64,000 bases of DNA, taken from contig OZ024743.1 of assembly GCA_964016885.1 (NCBI GenBank), positions 319,548,001 to 319,612,000 of the forward strand. The letters are read 5' to 3'. How positions within the stretch are numbered: position 1 is the stretch's first letter; each line of letters begins with the position of its first letter. A model generated the notes under the pieces. It was not told where the DNA came from, ran no database searches, and worked only from the letters and a program-made list of their open reading frames with translations. Source of the DNA: Eledone cirrhosa (Eukaryota). Both the position numbers and the translations under genes were made by a program. Of the stretch, positions 5,930 through 57,570 are shown in pieces.

Positions 5930-5932
<3 letters not shown>

Positions 5933-6156
5933 CGAAGGAAATGTGGTAAGGAACCAGGTGGACCATAACGCACCAAAGTACTCAATACTTGGGGTAGTAG
6001 AGTGGGTAATAGGAACCAGTAAGACCCCGACGGCTGAGCTCAAGCCGTTTCGACGGCTAATTCTGGACTAAATGAAAATTTATCGGATAAATTTTCATTT
6101 AGTCCAGAATTAGCCGTCTAGACGGCTTGAGCTCAGCCGTCGGGGTCTTACTGGTT

Positions 6157-6160
<4 letters not shown>
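5930..6160. mobile_element. Short palindromic PLE-type insertion (gaccccgacggc family)
   Basis: Arms about 6010-6084 and 6087-6160 plus left tail 5930-6009; relatives at 10496-10636, 12490-12682, 14835-14913, 35470-35588, 50449-50553. Confidence 0.7.
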
Positions 6161-6219
<59 letters not shown>

Positions 6220-6222
<3 letters not shown>

Positions 6223-6580
6223 AGGAAGTTATAGTTCACTTGAAGCATTGTGTAATGAGGTATAAACGTTTGTATATATATAATAAAGCCAAAAATATGC
6301 AAGTATGGACATAGAATAAAGAATGCAAATGCAAAAGATATTATTGACAATTAGTCTTTTACCTTAGATTTATTTAAGTATCCTTAATTTTCGAGATAAT
6401 ATCTCTTCTTCGGAGAAGAGATATTATCTCGAAAGAGATATTATCTCGAAAATTAAGGACACTTAAATAAACCTAAAGTAAATGACTAATCGCCAACAAT
6501 ATCTTTTGCAGTTGCATTCTTTATTCCATGTCCATACCTGCATTGTTTTGGCTTTATTATACATATACCAACGTTTATAA
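6220..6580. mobile_element. Short palindromic PLE-type insertion, diverged arms
   Basis: Inverted arms around 6410-6435; left tail contains atgcttcaagtgaac; degenerate hammerhead CCGAAGA...GAAA. Confidence 0.7.
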
Positions 6581-6588
6581 GTAAATAA

Positions 6589-9540
<2,952 letters not shown>

Positions 9541-9541
9541 G

Positions 9542-9597
<56 letters not shown>

Positions 9598-10442: not shown

Positions 10443-10864
10443 GAAATAATAATAAATTTGAAGACTAAAATCCAAAGATAATATATATATATATATAACA
10501 AAGGAATTGTGGTAAGGAACCAGATGGACCATAACACACCAGAGTACTTAATACTGAGGGTAGTAGAGTGGGAAATAGGAAAAAGTATGACCCCGACGGC
10601 AAAACTCAAGCCGTTTTGACGGCTATTTCTGGACTATACATATATATACTCGCAAATACTATTCAATCAGTCTCTGTAGTTCATGAGAAAATAGGATCAG
10701 TGTGGGTGTATACATATGAAGGTCATCTGCTCCATACAAAGCTTGACCACTTCTTGCATTTTATGTCTGTTCCGTCCCCGCATGGGATCTCAAATGGCTT
10801 TTGAGTCCTGAAAGCGCATGAAACATCTGTATAAAAATAATAAGTAATATAATGAGGTCTCATA

Positions 10865-12406: not shown

Positions 12407-12489
<83 letters not shown>

Positions 12490-12491
<2 letters not shown>

Positions 12492-12678
12492 CAAGGGAAT
12501 TGTGGTAAGGAACCAGATGGACCATAACGCACCAGAGTACTCAAAACTTAGGGTAGTAGAGTGGGAAATAGGAAAAGGTATGACCCCGACGGCAGAGCTC
12601 AAGCCGTTTCGACGGCTATTTCAGTCCAGAAATAGCGGTCGAAACGGCTTGAGCTCTGCCGTCGGGGTCATATATTTT

Positions 12679-12682
<4 letters not shown>
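12490..12682. mobile_element. Short palindromic PLE-type insertion (gaccccgacggc family)
   Basis: Tail 12490-12567, arms about 12568-12622 and 12629-12682. Confidence 0.7.
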
Positions 12683-12744
<62 letters not shown>

Positions 12745-14729: not shown

Positions 14730-14910
14730 CAACGAAACGACACAAAGGGTACAAAAAGTCTTATTACTTTCACGCTTTCTATGGAAAAAGGGAAAAAAAC
14801 TTCGACGTGTAAAGATATATATATATATATATATAGGAACAAGTATGACCCCGACGGCAGAGCTCAAGCCGTTTCGACGGTAATTCTGGTTGCTTATCAC
14901 ATTTCCTTCG

Positions 14911-14974
<64 letters not shown>

Positions 14975-17921: not shown

Positions 17922-18657
17922 ATGTAAATATCTTTAAGTCGTTTGGAAGCCTCGGCAATGCAAATGGGTAAATCTCCGGGTAACACGATCCGGTGGTGGA
18001 GAGAGAGATGTAAGTGTGTGTACGTTGAGATGCGTGGTGTGTATAAGATGTGTAAGATGTGTAGAAGAATGAAGGGAAGAGTATAAAGGATAAAATTAAA
18101 ATAACAACACAAGAGAGAGTTACCTTGGGAGAGATTTAATAGTCCCTATATATTTCGGATTCACATCCATCAACTGGGGGTTTTTCTGGAGTGGGGGAAA
18201 TGTTGTCTGTCGGACAGGTGCGAAACGCGTCCTCCGCTGTTTGTTGTTTTGAATATCTTTGATATTGTTTTGAATATCTTTGATATTCAAAACAACAAAC
18301 AGCGGAGGACGCGTTTCGCACCTGTCCGACAGACAACCTTTCCCCCACCCCGGAAAAAACCCTAGTTGATGGATGTGAATCCGAAATATATAGGGACTAT
18401 TAAATCTCTCCCAAGGTAACTCTCTCTTGTGTTGTTATTTTAATTTTATCCTTTATACTCTTCCCTTCATTCTTCTACACATCTTACACATCTTATACAC
18501 ACCACGCATCTCAACGTACACCCTCTTACATCTCTCTCCCCACCACCGGATCTTGTTACCCGGAGATTTACCCATTTGCATTGCCGAGGCTTCCAAACGA
18601 CTTAAAGATATTTACTTATTATTCCACAATGCTTCAAGCAAACTTCAATACTCTCTT
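17922..18657. mobile_element. Palindromic PLE-type insertion
   Basis: Arms about 17922-18260 and 18282-18615 with a few differences; tail 18616-18657 (atgcttcaagcaaac). Confidence 0.8.
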
Positions 18658-18777
18658 ATATATATATATTTATATATATAGTAATAATAATAAATTTGAA
18701 GACTAAAATCCAAAGAGGGCTCGATAAGGATAAATATTTATTTATTTATTTATATACGTTTATTTAATTATATGTAT

Positions 18778-18825
<48 letters not shown>

Positions 18826-18849
18826 TGATATATATATTTTATATATATT

Positions 18850-19538
18850 TTTATGTGTATTTGGTGTATACATTCGTATGCGTGCGGGTACAGGCGTTGC
18901 GTGGGTTCTGTGCGTGCGTGTGGGTTTTATTTATTTTTTAATTTTTTTAATTTTGTACGTGCGTGTTTTTGTATACCTATGCCGAGTGTTTTCGCGTATG
19001 CCTGTGTATGTACGTATATGGATGCGTGTATGTATTTATTTCCATTACCTCTGTATTTTATTTATTTTATTCTTAACTCTGAAGCCGAGAATCATTCGGT
19101 TTCCTAGTTAGAATTTTAGTCTACGACTTCAGTTATACCATTTACGTAGTTTTGTCTTTGCGTGCAATTGTTCTCCCCGCTCCACATATGCCATATTATC
19201 TTCGTTTTTTCCGTTCATTTCCTGAGAACGTCTCTATGCACCACCTAATAGAATATCAGTCTACGACTTCTTTTATACCATAAACGTGGTTCTGTCTTTG
19301 CGCGTAATTGTTTTTCACCGCTCCAAATAATGACGTATTATATACGTTTTTTCCCGTTCTTTGCCAGGGAACGTTTCCACGAACCAAAGTATCGTCTTCC
19401 TGTCTTCCTCCGGTTGCAACGTTTTTTTGAAATATTCACTTGTGCGTTCACAGATTGACTTTATTAGTTTCAGAAGATCCCGTTAAGGGTGAAAGCAGCG
19501 ATTCTTTGCTTAAACTTTAATCTGTTATTTTAATAAAT
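18850..19538 (+). mobile_element. PLE-type 3' region with internal about 140-bp tandem duplication and degenerate hammerhead
   Basis: Duplicated agtctacgacttc...gaacgt unit; CAGAAGA-ccc/ggg-GAAA; end matches the mini-palindrome at 5755-5848. Confidence 0.55.
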
Positions 19539-23781: not shown

Positions 23782-26700
23782 TAATAACAATAATAATAAT
23801 AATAACAACAATAATAATAACGACAACAACAACAATAATAATATACACATATATATATATATATACACAGATACGCACACACATAAACATATATACACAC
23901 ACACACACGATAGCAACTAACAGAGCTGCGATCGAATGTGACTTTTTAGCCCAGCCAATGATCTAAAATGTCTTGCACAGAGTCGGCAACCAAAACATTC
24001 ACTGGGAATAGCCGGCTGTGGTTGGAGTTCATGTACTTTTGCATGTCGTTTGAGCCCTCCTGCTGATTTACATTCTCTACCACATGCTTGGCAAGCATGA
24101 TGAGTAGCATCTACAACAGCAGCCTGGTAGTCAACCACTGGTCTTACTTTATCACTGCGAAGATGACTTTCGAGTCCAGCTTTGCTTAGGCAGAGTCTCG
24201 CACACACGCTGCATGTCAGCACCATAGGAGGACCCTCGCCGTCTGGAATTGAAACAGCAATGCCCTTCCTCACATCCCGCTTTACTTTCTCGTATGCGAT
24301 TCGAGATGCCTCAAAGGCAACTTTTCCCTCATATACAGTCTTTCTCCATTTATTACGATCAGCAGCAATATTCTCCCATGTATCAGCAGAGATGTTAGCG
24401 TCTTTCAAAGAGGCTTTCAAGGAATCCTTATACCTCTTTTTTGGTTTATGTGGCGGTCGTTTTCCTTTAACTAACTCTCCATAAAAGAGTTGTTTTGGTA
24501 TTCTAGAATCCTTCATCCTGGCAAGGTGACCACTCCAACGGAGTCGTTGCTTAAGCACAAAAGCTTCTATACTGTCACACATAGAGCTTTCCAAAATCTC
24601 GACATCACTGATGTGGTCCCTCCAGTGAACGCCATGGATCCGTCTGAGACACATCTGATGGAAATGCTCCAATTGCTTAAGGTGGTGTCGATATGTGACC
24701 CAGGTCTCGCAGGCATAAAGAAGAGAAGAGAGCACACATGCCTTGTACACCTTTACCTTTGTCTTTTTGCAGATGTCTCTCCGACCCCAGAGTCGCCTTT
24801 CTAGCTTTCCGAAAGCATCATTTGCTTTCCTTATCCTAAGTGAGATTTCACTATCAAGGTTGCTGTATCGATTGACAGTGCTTCCCAGGTAGACAAACTG
24901 ATCAACCACTTCAAGTCGTTTACCATACACATAGATATTTGGTTCACTGTACTGCTTACCAGGGGCAGGTTGGTACATGACGACGGTTTTCTTGGGACTG
25001 ACAGTCAATCCTAGGGCAGTGCAAGCGTCAGCAAATGCATTCAAAATGTGTTGCATATCACTCTCTGTGTGCGCTACAAGGTCTCAATCATCTGCATACA
25101 AGTGGTCTCTTATGATTGATGTACATACTTTTGTCTTTGCAGCAAAGCGCCTGATGTTAAATATGCTGCCTGAGGTTCGATATTGGATGTAAACACCATG
25201 CTCGCAATTCCTGAATGCAATACAGAAAACCATTGCAAATTATATGGCAAACATGGTCGGTGCTGGAATATCCCCCTGCTTCACTCCATTTTTTACTGAG
25301 ATAGGCTCCGACATGTTACCTCCGACATTAACCCAAGCCTTCATGTCGTCATGGAAAGACCTAACTAAAGCAAGGAGCTTATCAGAGCAACCAAGTTTCT
25401 GGAGAACCTTCCATAATGCATTTCTGTTAACAGTATCGAAAGCTTTTGTCAGATCGACAAAAACCTGATACAGATCCAAACCTTGTTCCATGCACTTCTT
25501 CTGGAGCTGTCTAGCTGAGAAGATCATATCAGTAGTGCCGCGTCCAGCACGAAAACCAGATTGACTTTCAGGAAGAACACAATCTGCAATGTTTGTCAGC
25601 AGACGGTCCAGAAGCACCCTACATAAAACTTTCCGTACGACAGAAAGCAATGATATACCTCTGTAGTTCCCACAATCATTCCTGTTACCCTTTCCCTTGT
25701 ACAAGACCACCATTACTGCATCTCTCCAGTCCTCAGGTACGGATTCATTAGCCCATATCCTGCCAAACAAAGAGTGAAGATGTTGCAGAAGTCTCTCACC
25801 ACCATATTGTAGGAGCTCAGCATGTATGCCATCCATACCTGGAGACCTTCCACTGTTCAGCTTCGAGATAGCCACTGCAACTTCCACAAGCGTCGGAGGG
25901 TCTGCGAGAGCTACTTTCACAGGACTTTCTGGAATGAGATTGAGGAGATCCTCATTGACGACAGACGGCTGATTCAAAAGATCATCAACGTGCTCTCGCC
26001 ACCTTCGTAGAATTCCTTGTGAATCACGAAGAAGTTCTTTGCCATCTTTGCCGCGAAGCGGTGTGACCAGAGAAGACGGTCCATAAACTTCACGCAAGAG
26101 ACTGTACAACAGCTTTGTGTTATTGGAATCTGACGCAGTTTGTATCTCATCAGCCTTCTCACTCCACCACTGATCCTTCATCTGAGAAAGACTCCGCCTA
26201 ACACGTGATTTTACATCCTTGAGTTCCTCATGCAACGTACACCTCTCCTGTGGTTTTGCCGTCAAGTAGCGTGACAGAGCACGCCTCTTATCAGCCAACA
26301 AGTCTTCTATATGTACATCATTCTCATTAAACCAGTCCTGGTGTTTTATCTGCACCAATCCCAGAATACGCCTGCCTACATCATAAACCGACTTTTTAAG
26401 GGTCGACCAATCCTCACCAAGATCTGAAACCTGCATCTGTTCTTGCAATGTCCTCTTCACATTTTTATCCTTAAGACGAGCAGCATTCAATCTTTTGGGC
26501 AGGGCAACACCAGGAGCCCGGATTTTACATTTAGTGATTAGTTTCACTTTTGCGCGTACCAGACGGTGGTCCGTCCAGCACTCAGCTCCACGAAGAGCAC
26601 GAACACACTGCACATCCTGTCTGTCACGCATCCTGACTAGGACGTAGTCCAAAAGATACCATTCCTTAGATGCAGGATGCATCCATGTGGTCTTGAATTT

Positions 26701-27290
26701 GTTCTTTTGTTGGAACATGGTGTTGGTAACACACAGATCCAGCTCCTCACACATCTGCAGCAGGAGCATACCATTGTTGTTACACTTTCCCACCCCATGC
26801 CTTCCGATTACATTCCATGTGTTAAAATCCCTACCCACTCTAGCAGTAAAGTCACCAAGCACGATGACTTTGTCTGCCTGAGGGATATTTCTTAAAACAC
26901 CTTTCAAGGCATGGTAAAAGGACACTTTTTCTTCATCGACAGAATTCATAGTTGGAGTATACACACTCACCAGGGTCGCATATCTTCTTTTGTCCAGCGG
27001 AATTCTCATGGACATAAGACGCTCACTAATCTCTACTGGGAATTCTTCTAATTTATTCACAAGAACAGTCTTAACAGCAAATGCTACCCCAGCCTCTCTT
27101 CTGGTTCCTTCATCTCTTCCTTTCCAGAAGAATGTATATTCTCCACAAAATTCTGTAAGATGACCATCTCCAGCTAACCTCGTCTCATATAAAGCCACGA
27201 TGTCAAGATCGTAACGTCGAAGCTCCTTTGCAACAAGAGCGGTCCTTCGTTCAGGACGCTCCACGATGACGAGCGGGACCAGGCTGTGAT
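23666..27290 (-). mobile_element. RTE-clade LINE, near full-length, two in-frame stops; APE endonuclease + RT + three C2H2 fingers
   Basis: ORFs 25240-27318 and 23917-25056 share a frame; motifs ETRL, LGDF, LDYVL, TDH, NYRGISLL, FVDLTKAFD, GVKQG, LYADD, RLRWSGH; 3' end ctcgataacgagggatcagccatcatg split off by microsatellites. Confidence 0.95.
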
Positions 27291-28384
27291 AACCTGGGGG
27301 CCCTGCCCTTATTGCCAATTATCTTTTTTGTTCCAGAACCTAAATTGCCAATTATCTCTTTTATATTGTTCTGGAACATCATTGAATTGGGGAAAAAAAA
27401 AAAAAAAAAGTAATAATAATAGTAACAATAATTTCTGTCAATATAAGTACATCACAAGTCTAAACACTGATTCTGTCAATATAAGTACATCACAAGTCTA
27501 AACACTAAAGATGCATGTGTGAATATGTATGTTCTTTCTTGAACATGGCGGACCTTGTTGTCTCTTGAGGTCACTGGTTGTGACTTGGTGATAACTCGTA
27601 TGAACATATAGCAAGATAAATGCAACTGTAATAATAATAATAATAATAATAATACACTATTAATAATTATTAATTAATGCAATTGTGCAATGCCTGTGCG
27701 TGACGAATATTTTTAAAGTGAGGAAAGACTGTGCACTGAGTCAATCCCACTCTCTGAGCGACAGTAGCTATAACCCGAAAAGAAGAAAAGATCAACATCA
27801 TCGGTAACTACTGAGCCGCAGGTTTTATGCCGGAGTTAACCCAGTTTCCTGAGATGCCTTCTCCTAGAAGAATACCCTGACAAGGGCTAGGGGTCCTTCA
27901 CTCCCAGTGGTTTAACTGCGCGATCGGGCATCCAGCCCGATTATTTCTATGTCCCCGCGCAAAAAACAAACAAAAAAAAAACTCACCTATTGACACTTAA
28001 TACGTACGACATACACACACGCGCACACACACACATACATACTCGCGCACACAACAACACTCAAACATACAAACAAACACACACACGCTACTCACTTACG
28101 CACACACATATATATATTACCGTCATTACTGATACAAGATTACAAGATTATATCATACATACATACATGCATACATGCATACATGCATGCATAATACACT
28201 CAAATTTATATAAGTATAAATTATACTTGTGTGTCTGCACCTCTTTATGTGCGTAGGTGTGCATATGTAGTACTATTGCAAGGTAAATTTGCCTGTTCAA
28301 ACACGCGTTAAATGTCAACCACATCAATTTTATTATCATATAATTAATTAGTGTTAATTAATCAGCCAATCGTTTGGTTTGTCA

Positions 28385-28599: not shown

Positions 28600-29250
28600 C
28601 ATGCCCACATGTACACACGTTTCTATTTCAATATGTTAGTCAAGAGAAGTTTGTTTGTTGTTCAGTTAATCATTTGACTTTGTTAGGTCCCACCATTACT
28701 TTTGTGACAAAGTTGACGATTGCAAAGGCAGGCTGTTCTGGGTCTAATTCAGCGAATAGATGGCAGGCATTGTCAGAGACCCCTCCTTGCTTTCGTGCAA
28801 TAAATCCAAACACCTTTGCACCTCCAGCACCGGGTACACTCACTTTGTTCCATCTCCGGTCTTCTGGATCAATTCCACAATATGTCACTGCTGTTACTGG
28901 GTAATGTCGCCGGAAGAACAGCTTTCTGTTGTTATCTGTCAGTGTAATGCCTTGGGAAGAAACTTTGAAATGTACTACAGTTGTTTTAGGTACGGGATCT
29001 AAACCTAAGGTCACTTTGGCTGCTTTAGCAACGGCTTGAGGTCCAGTCAGGGATTCTGTATCCACTGTATTTAGGTAGAGAACGTTGCAGGCTGATCCTG
29101 TAGCCAGTAAAGCAGCTGCTGAACCAGGAACTTCAGAACTGTGAGGACTTTCAGGATTGCTAATATCACCTGCTGGATCTGATTCAGGGAGAACTAATTT
29201 ACATGGCAGTGCCAGTGGAGTGATGGAATGCTGATACACAAGAGCAAATG
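28600..29250 (-). pseudogene. TNS: 5'-truncated intronless tensin copy (SH2 C-terminus + PTB domain + 3' UTR)
   Basis: [17 protein letters not shown]...[24 protein letters not shown]...[26 protein letters not shown]...[15 protein letters not shown]; uninterrupted to stop at 28670; no start context. Confidence 0.85.
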
Positions 29251-29290
29251 TTTCCTTTAGCGTCTATTTTTTTGGATTTGCGTGTATGTA

Positions 29291-29366: not shown

Positions 29367-30502
29367 CACGTCTGTAGAAGAAAGTTAAATAACAGCCTAC
29401 CAATATGCAACACGATGAGGTTATCTGGAGTATTATCAACAATACGTTCTGCTCTTTCAAGACAAAGACCCAAACCCAAACACTTTGTAGAAATGAATTT
29501 AACCTAACAGGATTGTGTGGCAGGTATTCCTGTCCCTTAGCCAACAGCCAATATGCTACAGTCAGAGAAGAGAAAGGTGTGTGTTACCTCTACATTAAAG
29601 AAGTAGAACGTGCAGCATTTCCACGGAGGATGTGGGAGAAGATTCAGTTGGATAACAACTTTGAAAAAGCAATGGCACAGATTAACACAAAGATGCTCTA
29701 CTGGCCTTCGTATTATCGCCGGAAGTGTCGCCTGAGATTGATTAGAATCAGGCAGTATTTGGCCAGAATGAGAAAACTTGTTTTGCGTAACAGGAGGAAG
29801 TTGGTTCCTTTACAGAGAAATATAGAACGTCGCGAGAAAAGACGAGAGGAGAAAGCATTGGTTGCTGCTCAACTTGACAACGCCATAGAGAAGCAGTTAT
29901 TAGAAAGACTCAAATCTGGGGCTTATAACGAGGTGTACAACTTCCCAATGAAAGCATTCAGCAAAGTTCTGGACGGAGAAGAAATAGAGGAAGAGGAGGA
30001 GGAAGAAGAAGAAGAAGAGATTGACAGTGAAGTGGAAGGACAGCGTGGGCTAATTGCAAAGGAGGTAGAAGAGGAGATGGAGAAGGAGAAAGGTGATGCG
30101 AGTACCTCTGGTTATGTGGACTATGTTCCTTACAATGAATTTGAAGAGAGTGACATCTTGAGGATCTTCGGTTGAGTAACTACAACTCTAGCAGTGATGA
30201 AGGAGATGTCGTCAATGACAACAAGGTACCAGGGTTGACGTTAGCAACGACGGGCGGGAAAGATAAGAAACGGAAGTAAGCACCATCATCGTTATCAGCA
30301 GAACATCACAAAGGAAAAACAAAGAAAATGTCAAAAAGACGTCCAAAAGTGACAATAGAGTATGAGACCGAGCTGGAGCAACCTTCCACCTCCAAAGAGA
30401 AGTTGAAATATTGAAATGTTATTGGAGGTCTGGAATGGGGGTGATGGGGGTGGGTTGAGGTGGTGTGGGTGAACTGGAATTTAAACAGTTTGCACATTTT
30501 TG
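29363..30502 (+). pseudogene. MAK16: Processed (intronless) MAK16 retrocopy with UTRs
   Basis: ORF 29405-30175 MQHDEVIW...[31 protein letters not shown]...[29 protein letters not shown]; frameshift near 30160, remainder (RPKVTIEYETE) out of frame; no introns; runs into a (TATG)n-like tract. Confidence 0.88.
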
Positions 30503-35449: not shown

Positions 35450-35583
35450 ATATATATATATATATACATATGAAAATGTATGACCCCGACGGCAGAGCTC
35501 AAACCGTTTCGACGGCTATTACCCTAAGTATTGAGTACTCTGGTGCGTTATGGTCCATCTGCTTCCTTACAACAAGTCCTTCG

Positions 35584-35622
<39 letters not shown>

Positions 35623-46302: not shown

Positions 46303-46352
<50 letters not shown>

Positions 46353-46435
46353 TATACTCCAGTCCTATAAACTGTAGAGTGCTACTTATCCGATATTTGC
46401 ATTAATTTATTGTGCTACAATAAAACTCACCTCCT

Positions 46436-46510
<75 letters not shown>

Positions 46511-48937: not shown

Positions 48938-48945
<8 letters not shown>

Positions 48946-49406
48946 ATACTTCGAGAGGATCATACTGTTGTAATAATATTGCCAGAAATAATAACAGAAC
49001 ACACTCACTGTTTGATTTGTTTTCACTTCTGTATCTTTTATATCTCCATAGTTAATTCATTTGGCCCTCAATATTTGTCATTGACTGACCAACGGTCAAA
49101 AATACATATATAAATACACATATATAGTCTAACAAAGTTCTTTCGTTGCACATCTGCAAAATCATCAGTGGTACTATTATGTTTCCTCCTGTTGTATTGT
49201 ATGCCTACGCCATTTTTATTTTATCTGTTTATTTATTTATTTATTTATTTATTTTTGTCTTCTTCTCTGCGCATGCGTTTGCGTGTGTGTATAGTGTTTG
49301 GTGTATGTGTTCGCGTTTGGGTGACAGTGTTTTGGTTATTGTATTCTATTTTAGTTTACTAGTGTGTGTTTATATGTGTTTGTTGTTATTGTGCTTGTGT
49401 ATATAT

Positions 49407-49441
<35 letters not shown>

Positions 49442-50411
49442 TATTTCGCTTAAGTCAGTATTGTTTGTTTGGGTGTTGTTATTCCATTCATTTTTTCTGT
49501 TTAGCTTTGGCTTTCTAAGCTCTATTTCACTTGCCTCTCTAGTTTGCCTATCTACTGGGTCATTTCTATGTTTAGATATTATTTTAATTTCTATGTTGTC
49601 TATGTTACCGTCATGTTGTTGTCTGGCGTGTTCGTATAGTACTGAACCGTTTCTTCGTCCTTTTATTTCCTGCCAGTGTTGTTCTATCCTTTCTCCTATG
49701 CTTCGAGCTATTTCGGCTATGTATGTTGTTGTCATGTTTCTGCAAGTACCCCCTGTACATGTTATGCTATAGACTATAGACTATTTAGGCAAATCAGAGA
49801 GGCAAGCGAAATAGAGCTTAAAAAATGAATGGAATAACAACACCCAAACAAACAATACGACTTAAGAGAAATATAAATAAATATATAAATATATATATAA
49901 ACAAGCACAATAACAACAAACACATATAAACACACACTAGTAAACTAAAATAGAATACAATAACCAAAACACTGTCACCCAAACGCGAACACACACCCCA
50001 AACACTATACCCACACGCAAACGCATGCGCAGAGAATAAGACAAAAATAAATAAATAATTAAACAGATAAAATAAAAATGGCGTAGACATACAATACAAC
50101 AGGAGGAAACATAATAGTACCACTGATGATGTTGCAGACGTGCAACGAAAGAACTTTGTTAGACTATATATATGTATTTATATCTGTGTTTTTGACCGTT
50201 GGTTGGTCAGTCAGTGATAAACATTGAGGACCAAATAAATTAACTATGGAGATATAAAAGATACAAAAGTGAAAACCAACCAAACAGTGAGTGTGTTCTG
50301 TTATTATTTGTGGCAATATTATTACAACAATATGACCCTCCCCATGTATAACAATATTTGTTTTGACTCACGATTTCATATAAAAAACCTCGCAAAACAA
50401 TTTCACCGCCG

Positions 50412-50412
<1 letters not shown>
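48938..50412. mobile_element. Head-to-head Penelope-like insertion with GIY-YIG remnant
   Basis: YIAEIARSIGERIEQHW...SVLYEH (49439-49735, minus); 49785-50355 inverted versus 48938-49550; related to the 54898 family. Confidence 0.88.
50119..50160 (+). ncRNA. Hammerhead-like motif (mirror copy about 49133-49172 minus)
   Basis: ca CTGATGA t gttgca-gacg-tgcaac GAAA gaac TT tg; stem I weak. Confidence 0.62.
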
Positions 50413-50451
<39 letters not shown>

Positions 50452-50633
50452 CGAAGGAAGTGTGGTAAGGAACCAGATGGACCATAACGCACCAAGTCCA
50501 GAATTAGCCGTCGAAACGGCTTGAGCTCAGCCGTCGGGGTCCTACTCGTTCCTATATATATATATATATATAAACATACACACACAAATATATATATATA
50601 TATATTCATCTACATACACATACATACGCACAT

Positions 50634-50665
<32 letters not shown>

Positions 50666-50669
<4 letters not shown>

Positions 50670-50802
50670 CAATTTTAACAAAAGATATTAAGCAACACTA
50701 ATAATAAATCAAAAAACATAAAAATAAACAAGCTTTTGACTGTTTTATATATATTTCAAAATTACGATGCTATGATGCTAGGTGTTTCCATTATTTTGTT
50801 TC

Positions 50803-50805
<3 letters not shown>
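50666..50805 (-). mobile_element. Inverted, diverged left-end fragment of the same Tc1 family
   Basis: Reverse complement of about 50844-50988 with several substitutions and a small deletion in the TIR. Confidence 0.85.
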
Positions 50806-50843
<38 letters not shown>

Positions 50844-50846
<3 letters not shown>

Positions 50847-52118
50847 GGGTTGGACAAAATAATGGAAACACCTAGCATCATAGCATCATAATTTTGAAAT
50901 ATATATAAAACAGTCAAAAGCTTGTTTATTTTTATGTTTTTTGATTTATTATTAGCGTTGCTTAATATGTTTTAATAAAATTGTTGTTTCATTTCAGATA
51001 TCATCAGAAAAAGGTAATTAAAATTCATTAAAATGACAGATCTATCGGACTTTCAAAGAGGTCAAATTGTTGGTGCTCATATGGCAGGCGCTAGCGTAAC
51101 GAAAACAGCCGAAATGTTTGGTGTATCAATAAGTACTGTCTCGAAAGTAATGACAGCCTTTGAGAAAGAGGGAAAAACCTCCTCGTCGAAACAAAACACC
51201 GGAAGGAAACCAAAACTTTCAGATAGGCACCGTCGAACTCTTACGCGAATTGTTAGAAAGGATCACAAAAGTACAGCTCCCAAAAATACTGCAGAGCTTA
51301 ATGACCACCTCGAGAACCCAGTTTCCACAAAAACTGTTCGCCGGGAGCTGCACAAAGCCGGATTTCACGGGAGGGCTGCAATCAGAAAACCACTACTTTC
51401 AATAACAAACGTTGCAAAGCGTTTAGAGTGGAGTAAAAACCTACAGAATTGGTCCCTAGAGCAGTGGAAGAATGTTATTTTCTCAGACGAGTCATCCTTT
51501 ACCTTATTTCCGACCACCAGCCGAGTATACGTGTGGAGACAGCCAAAAGAAGCAATTGACCCAGACTGCCTTCTTCCAACTGTTAAACATGGAGGAGGAT
51601 CTGTGATGATCTGGGGGCTATATCTTGGAAATCCGCCGGCCCAATGGTTTCCCTTCATGGCAGAATTAATACTCAAGACTAATTAAGCATTTTATCTGAT
51701 CAAATTCGTCCTATGGTTGCGGAAGAACTGTTTCCGGAGGGAAACGCAATCTTTCAGGATGATAATGCACCAATTCACACAGCTAAAGTTGTTACTGAAA
51801 AGCACGAGGAACATACTAGTGAAGTTGAACATCTTATCTGGCCACCACAGTCCTCAGATCTCAATATTATTGAACATTTATGGTGTATTTTAGAAAAACA
51901 AGTAAGGAGTCGATATCCTCCACCATCATCACTACAAGAACTGGAGACTGTTTTAGCTGAAGAATGGACAAAAATTCCTTTGGAAACAATTCAAACTTTG
52001 TACGAGTCCATACCTCGTAGAATTCAAGCTGTAATTACTGCCAAAGGTGGTCCTACCCCATATTAAAATTAATTTGTTTGTAATTTTAAGGTGTTTCCAT
52101 TATTTTGTCCAACCCCTG
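50844..52118 (+). mobile_element. Tc1-family DNA transposon, DD36E type, frameshifted
   Basis: 30-bp TIRs caggggttggacaaaataatggaaacacct, TA flanks; transposase 51033-52066 with GRKPKL, IFSDES, KHGGGSVMIWG, FQDDNAPIH, WPPQSSDLNIIE; frameshift near 51615. Confidence 0.95.
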
Positions 52119-54899: not shown

Positions 54900-56878
54900 T
54901 TCGTTTCTGAATTTGTTTAGCAAGATTCTTTATCTGAAAACGTGTGTTGAAACCGATATTGTTATACCTTGGGAGGGTCATGTTGCCAATAAGAAACACA
55001 AGCACCAGTTGCTTTCACTCCAAATTATTATAAATTAAATTATAAATTAAAAAATTTATAAATTTCTGGTTGGTTGGTTGGTTCCACAACCGGACGGTTG
55101 TTCATATATTGTCAAAGTTCTTTCGTCACACATTCTGTGACCTCTTCAGTGACAGGGATTATTTTCTTTATTTTGTGCCTCTCCTTTGTTCTGTCCGACG
55201 CCATCTTGTTTTTGTGTGTGTTGTGTGCTTAGTTTGTGCATGTGTTACATCCGGGTGTCTGTGTGTGTTTTTATTTGTATTTGTTTGTTTGTATTTGTTT
55301 ATTTGCTTGTATTTGCTTATCTATTTGTTTATTTACATGTTACTGTTTGGTTGTTTGTTCTATGTGTGTGTGTTTTCATTTTGTCCTTAATTGTAAGTTG
55401 TGATGTTGCTATTCCATTCATGTTTTCTATTTAATTTATGTTTATTGTCTCTGTGATTTGTCTAAACATTGCGTCTTTTCTGTGTGTAGATTTTATTTTT
55501 ATTTCTTTGTTCTCTAATTTACCCTTATGTTCTATTTTAGCATGTTGGTGGAGTACTGATGATTCTTTTCTATCTTGAAGTTCTCGCCAGTGTTCATTTA
55601 AGCTTTCTCCTATACTACGAGCTGTCTCACCTATGTACACTCTATTCTTATCTTTACATTGTCCTTCAGTACATCTTGTGCTATATACTATGTTTCTAGT
55701 TTTACAGTTAATATGGGGGCTTAGTTTACAGATTATGCATTCCTTATCTATACAGGGATGTCTTTGAAAAGGGTATGTATTGCTAATAAGTGTTTTTATG
55801 GAGGTACCTGGTCTTTCTACTATCTTAATATTTAGATTAAGTTAATCTAGGGCCCTTCTAAATTTGTAAGCTAGTTCACCTCTAGGGGTTGTATTGATGA
55901 ACATTACACTCTGGTATTTATTGCTATCATACCATGAATTTATTCTATTAACCTTATTCCTAGTTCTTTCTATTCTATTCCAAAATTTGCTCCTATACAA
56001 GGGGCAGGTCCCATTTGTATCATTATTTACCATTTTTCCCATTTGGTTCTGGCTCCTCTATATACTCTGATTTTATCTCTCTGATTGTAACCAGAGAACT
56101 GCAGACGGTAGATGAAGTGTTGTATGTGTCTCTCCAGTTCTTTGGGGTTGCACATGCGGGACACGTTTCTCATCACCCGTACCAAATCGGCAATCAGTAT
56201 GTTGATTTTGGTGTGATCCGAAACAGCTGAGTTTTGGTGGATCAGATATTTCGAAGTCATGGATTTGGCATAATGGGAATGGAGGATTTGTTTTTTGTTA
56301 TTAATGGTTTCTAACCAGAGCTCTGTGTCTAGTACAGGTAATCGATGGTTGAGGTGTTTGCTTGGGTAGTCTAGACAAATCACAGAGGCAATAAACATAA
56401 ATGAACTCCAACCAAAATTAAATAGAAAACATGAATGGAATAGCAACATCACAACTTACAATTAAGGACAAAATGAAAACACACACACACACATAGAATA
56501 AACAACCAACCAGTAACATGTAAATAAACAAATAAATAAACAAATACAAACAAACAAATACAAATAAAAACACACACAGACACTCAGATGTAACACATGC
56601 GCAAACTAAGCACACAACACACAAAAACAAGATGGCGTAGGACAGAACAAAGGAGAGGCACAAAACAAAGAAAAGAATCCCAGTCACTGAAGAGGTCACA
56701 TAATGTGTGACGAAAGAACTTTGACAATATATGAACAACCGTCCGTTTGTGGAACAACCAACCAACCGGAAATTTATAATTTTTTAAATTTATAATTTAA
56801 TTTATAATAAATTGGAGTGAAAGCATGGTGCGTGTGTTTCTTATTTGCAACATGACCCTCCCAAAGTATAACAATATA
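54898..56878 (-). mobile_element. Penelope-like element with inverted terminal copy
   Basis: RLPVLDTELW, HYAK, LQFSGY, YIGETARS...EH on the minus strand (55431-56372); 56417-56878 is an inverted copy of about 54956-55435. Confidence 0.9.
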
Positions 56879-57570
56879 TATATATATATATATATATATC
56901 ATCATCATCATCATCATCATCATTTCATTTTACGTCCGCTTTTTCCCTGCTTGCAAGGGTGGGACGGGAACTGATTCTGGCTCGATTTCTACAGCTGGAT
57001 GCCCTTCCTAACACCAACCTCATTTACAGTGAGTGCTGGGTGCTTTTTTGCCGTGGCACCTCCACGACCACTTTGCAGTGGAATGATATGGACCCCAGTC
57101 CCTATCATCTCATTTCTACAGCTAAGTAAACTGGAGCAATGTGAAATAAAATGTTTTGCTCAAGGAAACAACACATCACCCCGTCTGAGAATTGAACTCA
57201 CAAACTTTCGATTGCAAGGCCAATGCTCTAACCACTAAGCCATCTGCCTCCATTTATATATATATATGTGCCTCCATTTATATATATATTTATATATATA
57301 TATATATATTTCATATATATGTTCCAGAAGTGGTTGTGTGTGAGAGTGTCTGGATGTTTTGTTACTTATGTGGGGATGGGTAAGAAAAACTGTAGTGTTG
57401 TAGCGGTGCAGAAAGAATTAGGTCAAGTTGAAGAATTGTCAAGGATATCTGGATGTATTTATCACCTTGACTTATTTATCGTCTTCCTTATATAATCACA
57501 CACTACTATCCCAAGTATTCAGTACACTGTTGAATAATGGTCTAACGAGTATAATACTGGATTAATCCTG

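Follow-up and report, generated by a model that had tools for sequence, protein, structure and literature searches.

Non-overlapping arms in head-to-head inserts of a likely Penelope-like element of Eledone cirrhosa, with twin priming as their best, unproven explanation

How does an insert arise that consists of two inverted pieces of one repeat family, neither of which contains the other? This question is raised by the insert at 14833-14913 in a stretch of 64,000 nucleotides from Eledone cirrhosa (GCA_964016885.1, contig OZ024743.1, positions 319,548,001 to 319,612,000 of the forward strand; the whole stretch is referred to as the window). With moderate confidence, and short of proof, the best explanation of this and related inserts is considered to be twin priming that uses both of the RT start sites known for Penelope-like elements (PLEs).

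All family coordinates given below (1-155) refer to window positions 5930-6084 as reference. The insert is composed of a tail-less arm of 53-57 nt and a tail arm of 24-29 nt, joined head-to-head and embedded in (TA)n:

14815..14835, no strand: left (TA)n target flank, the last ATA of which is common to the fixed tail-less start of the element
14833..14889, minus strand: tail-less inverted arm, reference 80-137, its outer end being the fixed internal site
14885..14889, no strand: head-to-head junction with microhomology of 4-5 nt (TCTGG)
14885..14913, plus strand: tail arm, reduced to the terminal 24-29 nt of a tail of 79 nt
14912..14973, no strand: right (TA)n target flank

Positions 14833-14889 align in plus orientation to reference 80-137 (93%, E 3.9e-19), and 14886-14913 in minus orientation to reference 1-28 (93%, E 1.2e-6). 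The best split places the inner ends at reference 24-29 (tail arm) and 132-137 (tail-less arm) with no linker, such that 51-55 nt of family sequence (up to reference 79) are absent between the arms. The non-overlapping opposite arms reported for 14835-14913 in a preliminary description are thus real, while the arm lengths given there (about 48 and 30 nt) had to be corrected to the values above.

Six copies of the family are present in the window, all starting in (TA)n and five of them inverted head-to-head; a distant tail-like match is found at 57499-57542. Besides the insert at 14833-14913, the copies are:

5930..6161, no strand: complete tail arm and tail-less arm, forming a perfect palindrome around a single central nucleotide, source of the reference
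10496..10636, minus strand: solo copy with tail, truncation point at reference 141
12489..12683, no strand: near-palindrome in which the tail-less arm exceeds the tail arm by 6 nt at the centre (134 vs 140)
35467..35588, no strand: gap-type copy, most diverged, gap of 8-13 nt
50449..50555, no strand: gap-type copy, flipped, gap of 32-33 nt

The tail is an extension of 79 nt, present at one end only and with a fixed boundary at 6009. All five inverted copies differ in their centre, and in four of them neither arm includes the other; in the non-gap inverted copies, the arms overlap by 55-76 nt. The inner ends are at 66-71 and 127-133 in case of 35467-35588 (microhomology of 1-3 nt, short end partly decayed) and at 46-47 and 139-140 in case of 50449-50555 (0-1 nt). 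Recurrence of the layout at 35470-35588 and, flipped, at 50449-50553, also part of the preliminary description, was confirmed: junctions differ, both outer ends are common, all three loci reside in (TA)n, and alignment to 5930-6084 yields gaps of 51-55, 8-13 and 32-33 nt. Target-site duplications are hidden at the family copies by the (TA)n flanks. Since a random join has a chance of 5-6% of sharing at least three letters, only the junction at 14885-14889 is clearly rich in microhomology; microhomology is strong at one of three gap loci and does not separate the models.

Three public RAD-seq runs and one contig set were mapped to the reference 5930-6084. Matches comprised 24,545, 25,356 and 28,386 reads, from runs of roughly 12.5-12.8 million reads each, and 21,670 of 17.1 million contigs, which reveals a high-copy family. 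Loose ends in (TA)n before 6009 were observed with 3,529, 3,073 and 3,076 reads (depth at 6013: 15,747, 15,933 and 17,981, respectively), showing that the position of the tail-less end is fixed and that it adjoins (TA)n. Among the 15 joints listed (of 27), 14 change strand: six are of gap type, six are partial overlaps, one connects the tail end to the short end, and one is ambiguous; joint 5956-6007 allowed no reading. The gap-type joints, each of them different, connect 5970, 5971, 5975, 5986, 6000 and 6000 to 6059-6069 and thereby establish gap junctions as a recurrent class whose breakpoints vary. Joining of the tail end straight to the opposite-strand tail-less end (joint 5930-6009; 36, 9 and 18 reads) perhaps reflects tandem units or insertion at the end of another copy. 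Four joints at 6015 were excluded from the gap count, since a subfamily with a different segment at 6016-6023 breaks the alignment there. Loose ends at 6059 (1,326-1,455 reads per run) stem from a related subfamily with different sequence beyond this point. Those at 6081-6083 (55 and 8 contig records; consensus agreement 0.64 and 0.86) may, tentatively, place the centre of 5930-6161 at the tip of a natural hairpin, and hint at an absent hammerhead half. Read depth was rejected as a measure of the gap:overlap ratio, these being RAD-seq data with 7,219 of 10,166 molecules ending at 6062 in X21, likely due to a restriction cut at AATT, within 6059-6062; moreover, PCR and contig building are likely to deplete palindromes in these libraries. 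An assembly artefact as cause of the layout was likewise rejected, since the fixed end and the gap joints were found in independent runs.

Judging from sequence features, the family likely represents the 3' end of a PLE. Only 155 nt of it are contained in the window and no ORF for it was found there; GIY-YIG-like coding pieces occur in other window families of like layout, with weak scores, none above the Pfam cut-off. GAAAC, a closing stem and GTC are visible by eye on the minus strand of the family copies, and 14833-14889 is likely, by eye, the 3' half of a hammerhead on the minus strand, which was not recovered by folding. Minimum-energy folds of the family copies yielded no hammerhead, the window copies contain no CTGANGA core, and a suggested upstream hammerhead half has no match in the window. 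The Rfam matches listed (150 of 235) include no hammerhead, just hairpin and microsatellite miRNAs below gathering scores, and motif scans of metagenome and viral contigs gave no matches. In several neighbouring families of the window, the hammerhead core reads outward from the centre. Assignment to a MITE or DNA transposon was rejected, since the two ends are unlike sequences.

The window is AT-rich, microsatellite-rich and dense in (TA)n-flanked inserts with two head-to-head arms, one of them carrying an extra end piece. It also harbours an uninterrupted ORF matching Ribosomal_L28e and Mak16 (29393-30175, possibly a MAK16 retrocopy), an ORF with a PTB domain (28670-29263, PF08416; a likely host exon), and a LINE, which we take to be RTE-like, with long ORFs for endonuclease and reverse transcriptase (23917-27318). 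A presumably Tc1/mariner-like transposon with 30-nt terminal repeats is located at 50844-52118, with an inverted copy of one end (50667-50805) across a (TA)n run.

According to the twin-priming model, both strands of the (TA)n target would be nicked; from one target 3' end, cDNA synthesis would begin at the tail terminus of the RNA, and from the second it would begin at the fixed site 79 nt inside the RNA. The internally primed cDNA would usually extend for about 50-60 nt and the tail-primed cDNA would stop anywhere, after which the two cDNA ends would be joined, often via short microhomology. Stopping of the tail cDNA before the internal site would yield a gap product (14836, 35467, 50451), and its passing this site would yield overlapping arms. 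Both cDNAs stopping at one place, or pairing through a natural hairpin, would yield a palindrome (5932); near-perfect palindromes require coupled ends, as would arise if both cDNAs reached the same RNA end and ran off it, or by such pairing. The sequences themselves establish the anatomy, two fixed outer ends, variable inner junctions and arms that do not include each other; PLE identity, the priming events, the joining pathway and the primary nature of the gaps are inferred. Within one locus, the arms carry the same subfamily variants, which would fit copying from one RNA and would equally result from two RNAs with a common source or from snap-back.

Snap-back, i.e., a tail-primed cDNA folding back and copying itself, requires one arm to lie inside the other. 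This is untrue at 5 of the 20 head-to-head loci of all families classified, partly by eye, in the window, and unmodified snap-back is therefore excluded at these five. The preliminary conclusion that the inverted arm cannot be a copy of the first cDNA thus holds for the present-day sequence, in which neither arm contains the other. Its further step from non-overlap to twin priming does not hold by itself, since non-overlap alone cannot separate twin priming from a fold-back that was trimmed one-sidedly, be it in the course of insertion or later; in sum, the twin-priming interpretation was partly supported.

In all nine gap junctions (three in the window, six in reads), the tail-less arm reaches at least reference 127 and the tail arm ends at 24-71. 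With a uniform end in 105-141, a tail-less end of at least 127 in 9/9 has p 0.0003-0.015 depending on the microhomology assumed, a value to be read with the reservations that the joints listed are 15 of 27, that the minimal piece length enters p, that a dimorphic site may break the alignment and so produce the ends at 6059-6063, and that one read joint may equal the 50451 junction itself. The solo copy ends at reference 141, i.e., in the range of the tail-less inner ends. The copy at 50449-50555 differs from the reference at 4 positions, all among the 40 common family variants listed (of 166, so that a difference outside this list need not be private). Together, the reach of the tail-less arm in 9/9 and this copy with only common-variant differences favour the gaps as primary products; the fixed start at (TA)n, the in vitro use of two RT sites, and a gap copy free of rare changes favour two primings.

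The tally across families is less favourable. The centre is at most 4 nt long at 8 of the 20 loci (2973, 5932, 6221, 9601, 13643, 17924, 34875, 35253), the tail arm is longer at six (5693, 6739, 12747, 13278, 36095, 54900), the tail-less arm is longer at five (12491, 14836, 35467, 48942, 50451), and locus 48445 was left unplaced. Outside the tally are 50667-50986, a presumed Tc1/mariner end, and 18681-19536 as a possible additional gap case. The eight short centres count against twin priming, since freely truncated cDNA pairs would rarely yield them, and so do several centres at or near hammerhead stems, which are places of easy fold-back. The arm asymmetry is even (6 vs 5), which is predicted by symmetric deletion, too. 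The strongest case of a longer tail-less arm among the other families is:

48942..50412, no strand: other PLE family of like layout, tail-less arm exceeding the tail arm by about 235 nt

The extra sequence of about 235 nt is a GIY-YIG-like coding piece (49551-49786), which the tail arm lacks and which shares 48% identity with another GIY-YIG-like piece, located at 55434-55841; the junction carries a 7-nt duplication, and the arms differ by 32 substitutions. Halves also occur alone in other families (tail-only copy at 46349-46439, tail-less solo at 35617).

Further inverted loci of the window display features of their own. The 2.8-kb inverted PLE insertion at 6739-9545 has 895 nt of 100% identical arms and a 49-nt spacer that continues the reading frame of the tail arm; its outer parts are less alike, a pattern possibly due to arm-to-arm conversion. 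The palindromic insertions 6221-6560 and 17924-18656 contain central tandem duplications of 17 and 21 nt, respectively. At 18681-19536, a partial tail and a long tail-less arm of another family, the arm containing a pair of 140-nt tandem units as well as a hammerhead-like motif of variant core, are arranged head-to-head with repeat DNA between them. Inner ends at 2973, 6221, 13643, 35253 and 36095 often lie inside a hammerhead core or stem or immediately upstream of one, which suggests RT stalling or cDNA pairing there.

Snap-back combined with trimming at insertion is an unlikely alternative, though the most probable one. Here, the hairpin formed by self-copying of the tail-primed cDNA would be opened off-centre and end-joined before sealing, and the fixed short end would stem from endonuclease resolution or from annealing to the target. 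It would accommodate the near-perfect palindromes at 8/20 loci, and the small central duplications at 6221, 17924 and 48942 resemble repeated annealing. As far as the available parts of these sources go, self-priming was proposed for PLE inverted repeats (PMC3846280), the PLE tail was ascribed to EN resolution (PMC8557442), and in yeast, fold-back has been shown to occur at breaks (PMC11724301). Trimming at insertion also permits young gap copies and would leave no palindromic allele. However, all nine gap junctions would need loss of the whole template arm plus part of the tail while the copy was spared, the second in vitro RT start site would go unused, and another family possesses a tail-less solo. 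Twin priming and snap-back may both operate in one family.

Deletion after insertion appears improbable. All inverted copies would have begun as palindromes, the centres of which were cut asymmetrically by cruciform cleavage and end-joining. The even 6:5 asymmetry across families and the microhomology at 14885-14889 are in agreement with this, and perfect palindromes in mouse acquire asymmetric centre deletions (review PMC8701086, available part); the mouse data, however, concern a 15-kb palindrome. Moreover, the least-diverged copy is already gapped, the older copy at 5930-6161, with its 2 arm differences, retains 76 bp of perfect palindrome, and the tail-less arm is almost intact in 9/9 gap junctions.

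Very improbable is an inherited short end, be it by transcription and retrotransposition of the inverted unit itself or by fusion of two neighbouring insertions through later deletion: joint 5975-6068 likely recurs (3 contigs, summed depth 138 vs 5-17 for listed single pieces) and 18681-19536 resembles two head-to-head pieces with repeat DNA between, but some joint recurrence is expected in a family of such size, all five inverted window copies have different centres, overlapping arms in a locus have common subfamily variants, and no TA is left at the gap junctions of 14833-14913, 35467-35588 and 50449-50555.

Returning to twin priming, one may propose, tentatively, that PLEs use it regularly and in a programmed manner: a dimeric enzyme would prime both target strands at a pair of fixed positions of a single RNA, the distance between these positions would constitute the tail, and the reach of the tail-primed cDNA would set a continuum of gap, overlap and palindrome. 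The head-to-head layout of PLEs is already published, and the available text of PMC8557442 calls the origin of PLE tandem and inverted structures undefined; published ideas comprise self-priming (PMC3846280, in part) and endonuclease resolution of the tail (PMC8557442). No publication assigning PLE inversions to twin priming was found in a search with thin coverage of the subscription literature, and the idea may be in print; the accessible portions of PMC9977147, PMC12910113, 10.1101/2024.12.14.628481 and 10.64898/2026.07.22.740005 contain nothing about the geometry of PLE junctions. As an element, the family is ordinary; its value is that of a useful, not decisive, test of mechanism. Gap-type junctions represent products beyond plain self-priming and link the RT start sites known from in vitro work to the inverted layout, and the high copy number of the family, together with its two fixed ends, renders the question countable in one assembly. 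If true, twin priming would help to explain the known inverted structures of PLEs, and the many short copies of this genome would provide abundant natural data on how PLEs integrate.

Among the closest known systems are the EN+ PLEs (Penelope/Poseidon, Neptune, Hydra, Naiad; PMC8557442, PMC3846280). According to the accessible parts of these papers, they share the head-to-head inverted, strongly 5'-truncated copy, a tail restricted to one of the ends and a preference for microsatellites, here (TA)n targets, as well as outward-reading hammerhead cores, here in neighbouring window families. The present family, the 155 nt of which yielded neither an ORF nor a clade assignment, has a longer tail (79 nt vs 30-40 bp published for EN+ PLEs in these parts), and wholly non-overlapping arms are not described there.

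With respect to mechanism, a close system is PAc, the purified Poseidon protein of the green anole, a predicted dimer which cuts and extends both target strands in vitro and begins RT at two sites bounding the tail (PMC11167929). Priming of one target end at each of two such sites would directly produce the gap-type inverted layout. Further likenesses are the AT-rich targets and the use of uncleaved hammerhead RNA as template, the arms of the present family extending past the putative cut site. In contrast, the PAc products were formed in vitro and those reported here are genomic products alone; the main text of PMC11167929 does not tie the two sites to inverted insertions.

Twin priming of L1, as described in the available parts of PMC2912911 and 10.1101/2024.08.27.596794, likewise involves a second DNA end priming inside the RNA, head-to-head arms, and a gap or overlap with microhomology at the junction, L1 inversions being of gap type in 66% and of overlap type in 17% (10.1101/2024.08.27.596794). 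In L1, however, the internal site is variable and depends on chance complementarity, whereas it is fixed at 6009 in the present family, which has no poly(A). Perfect palindromes are common here, and overlaps are frequent and long, up to 900 nt compared with the L1 median of 22 nt.
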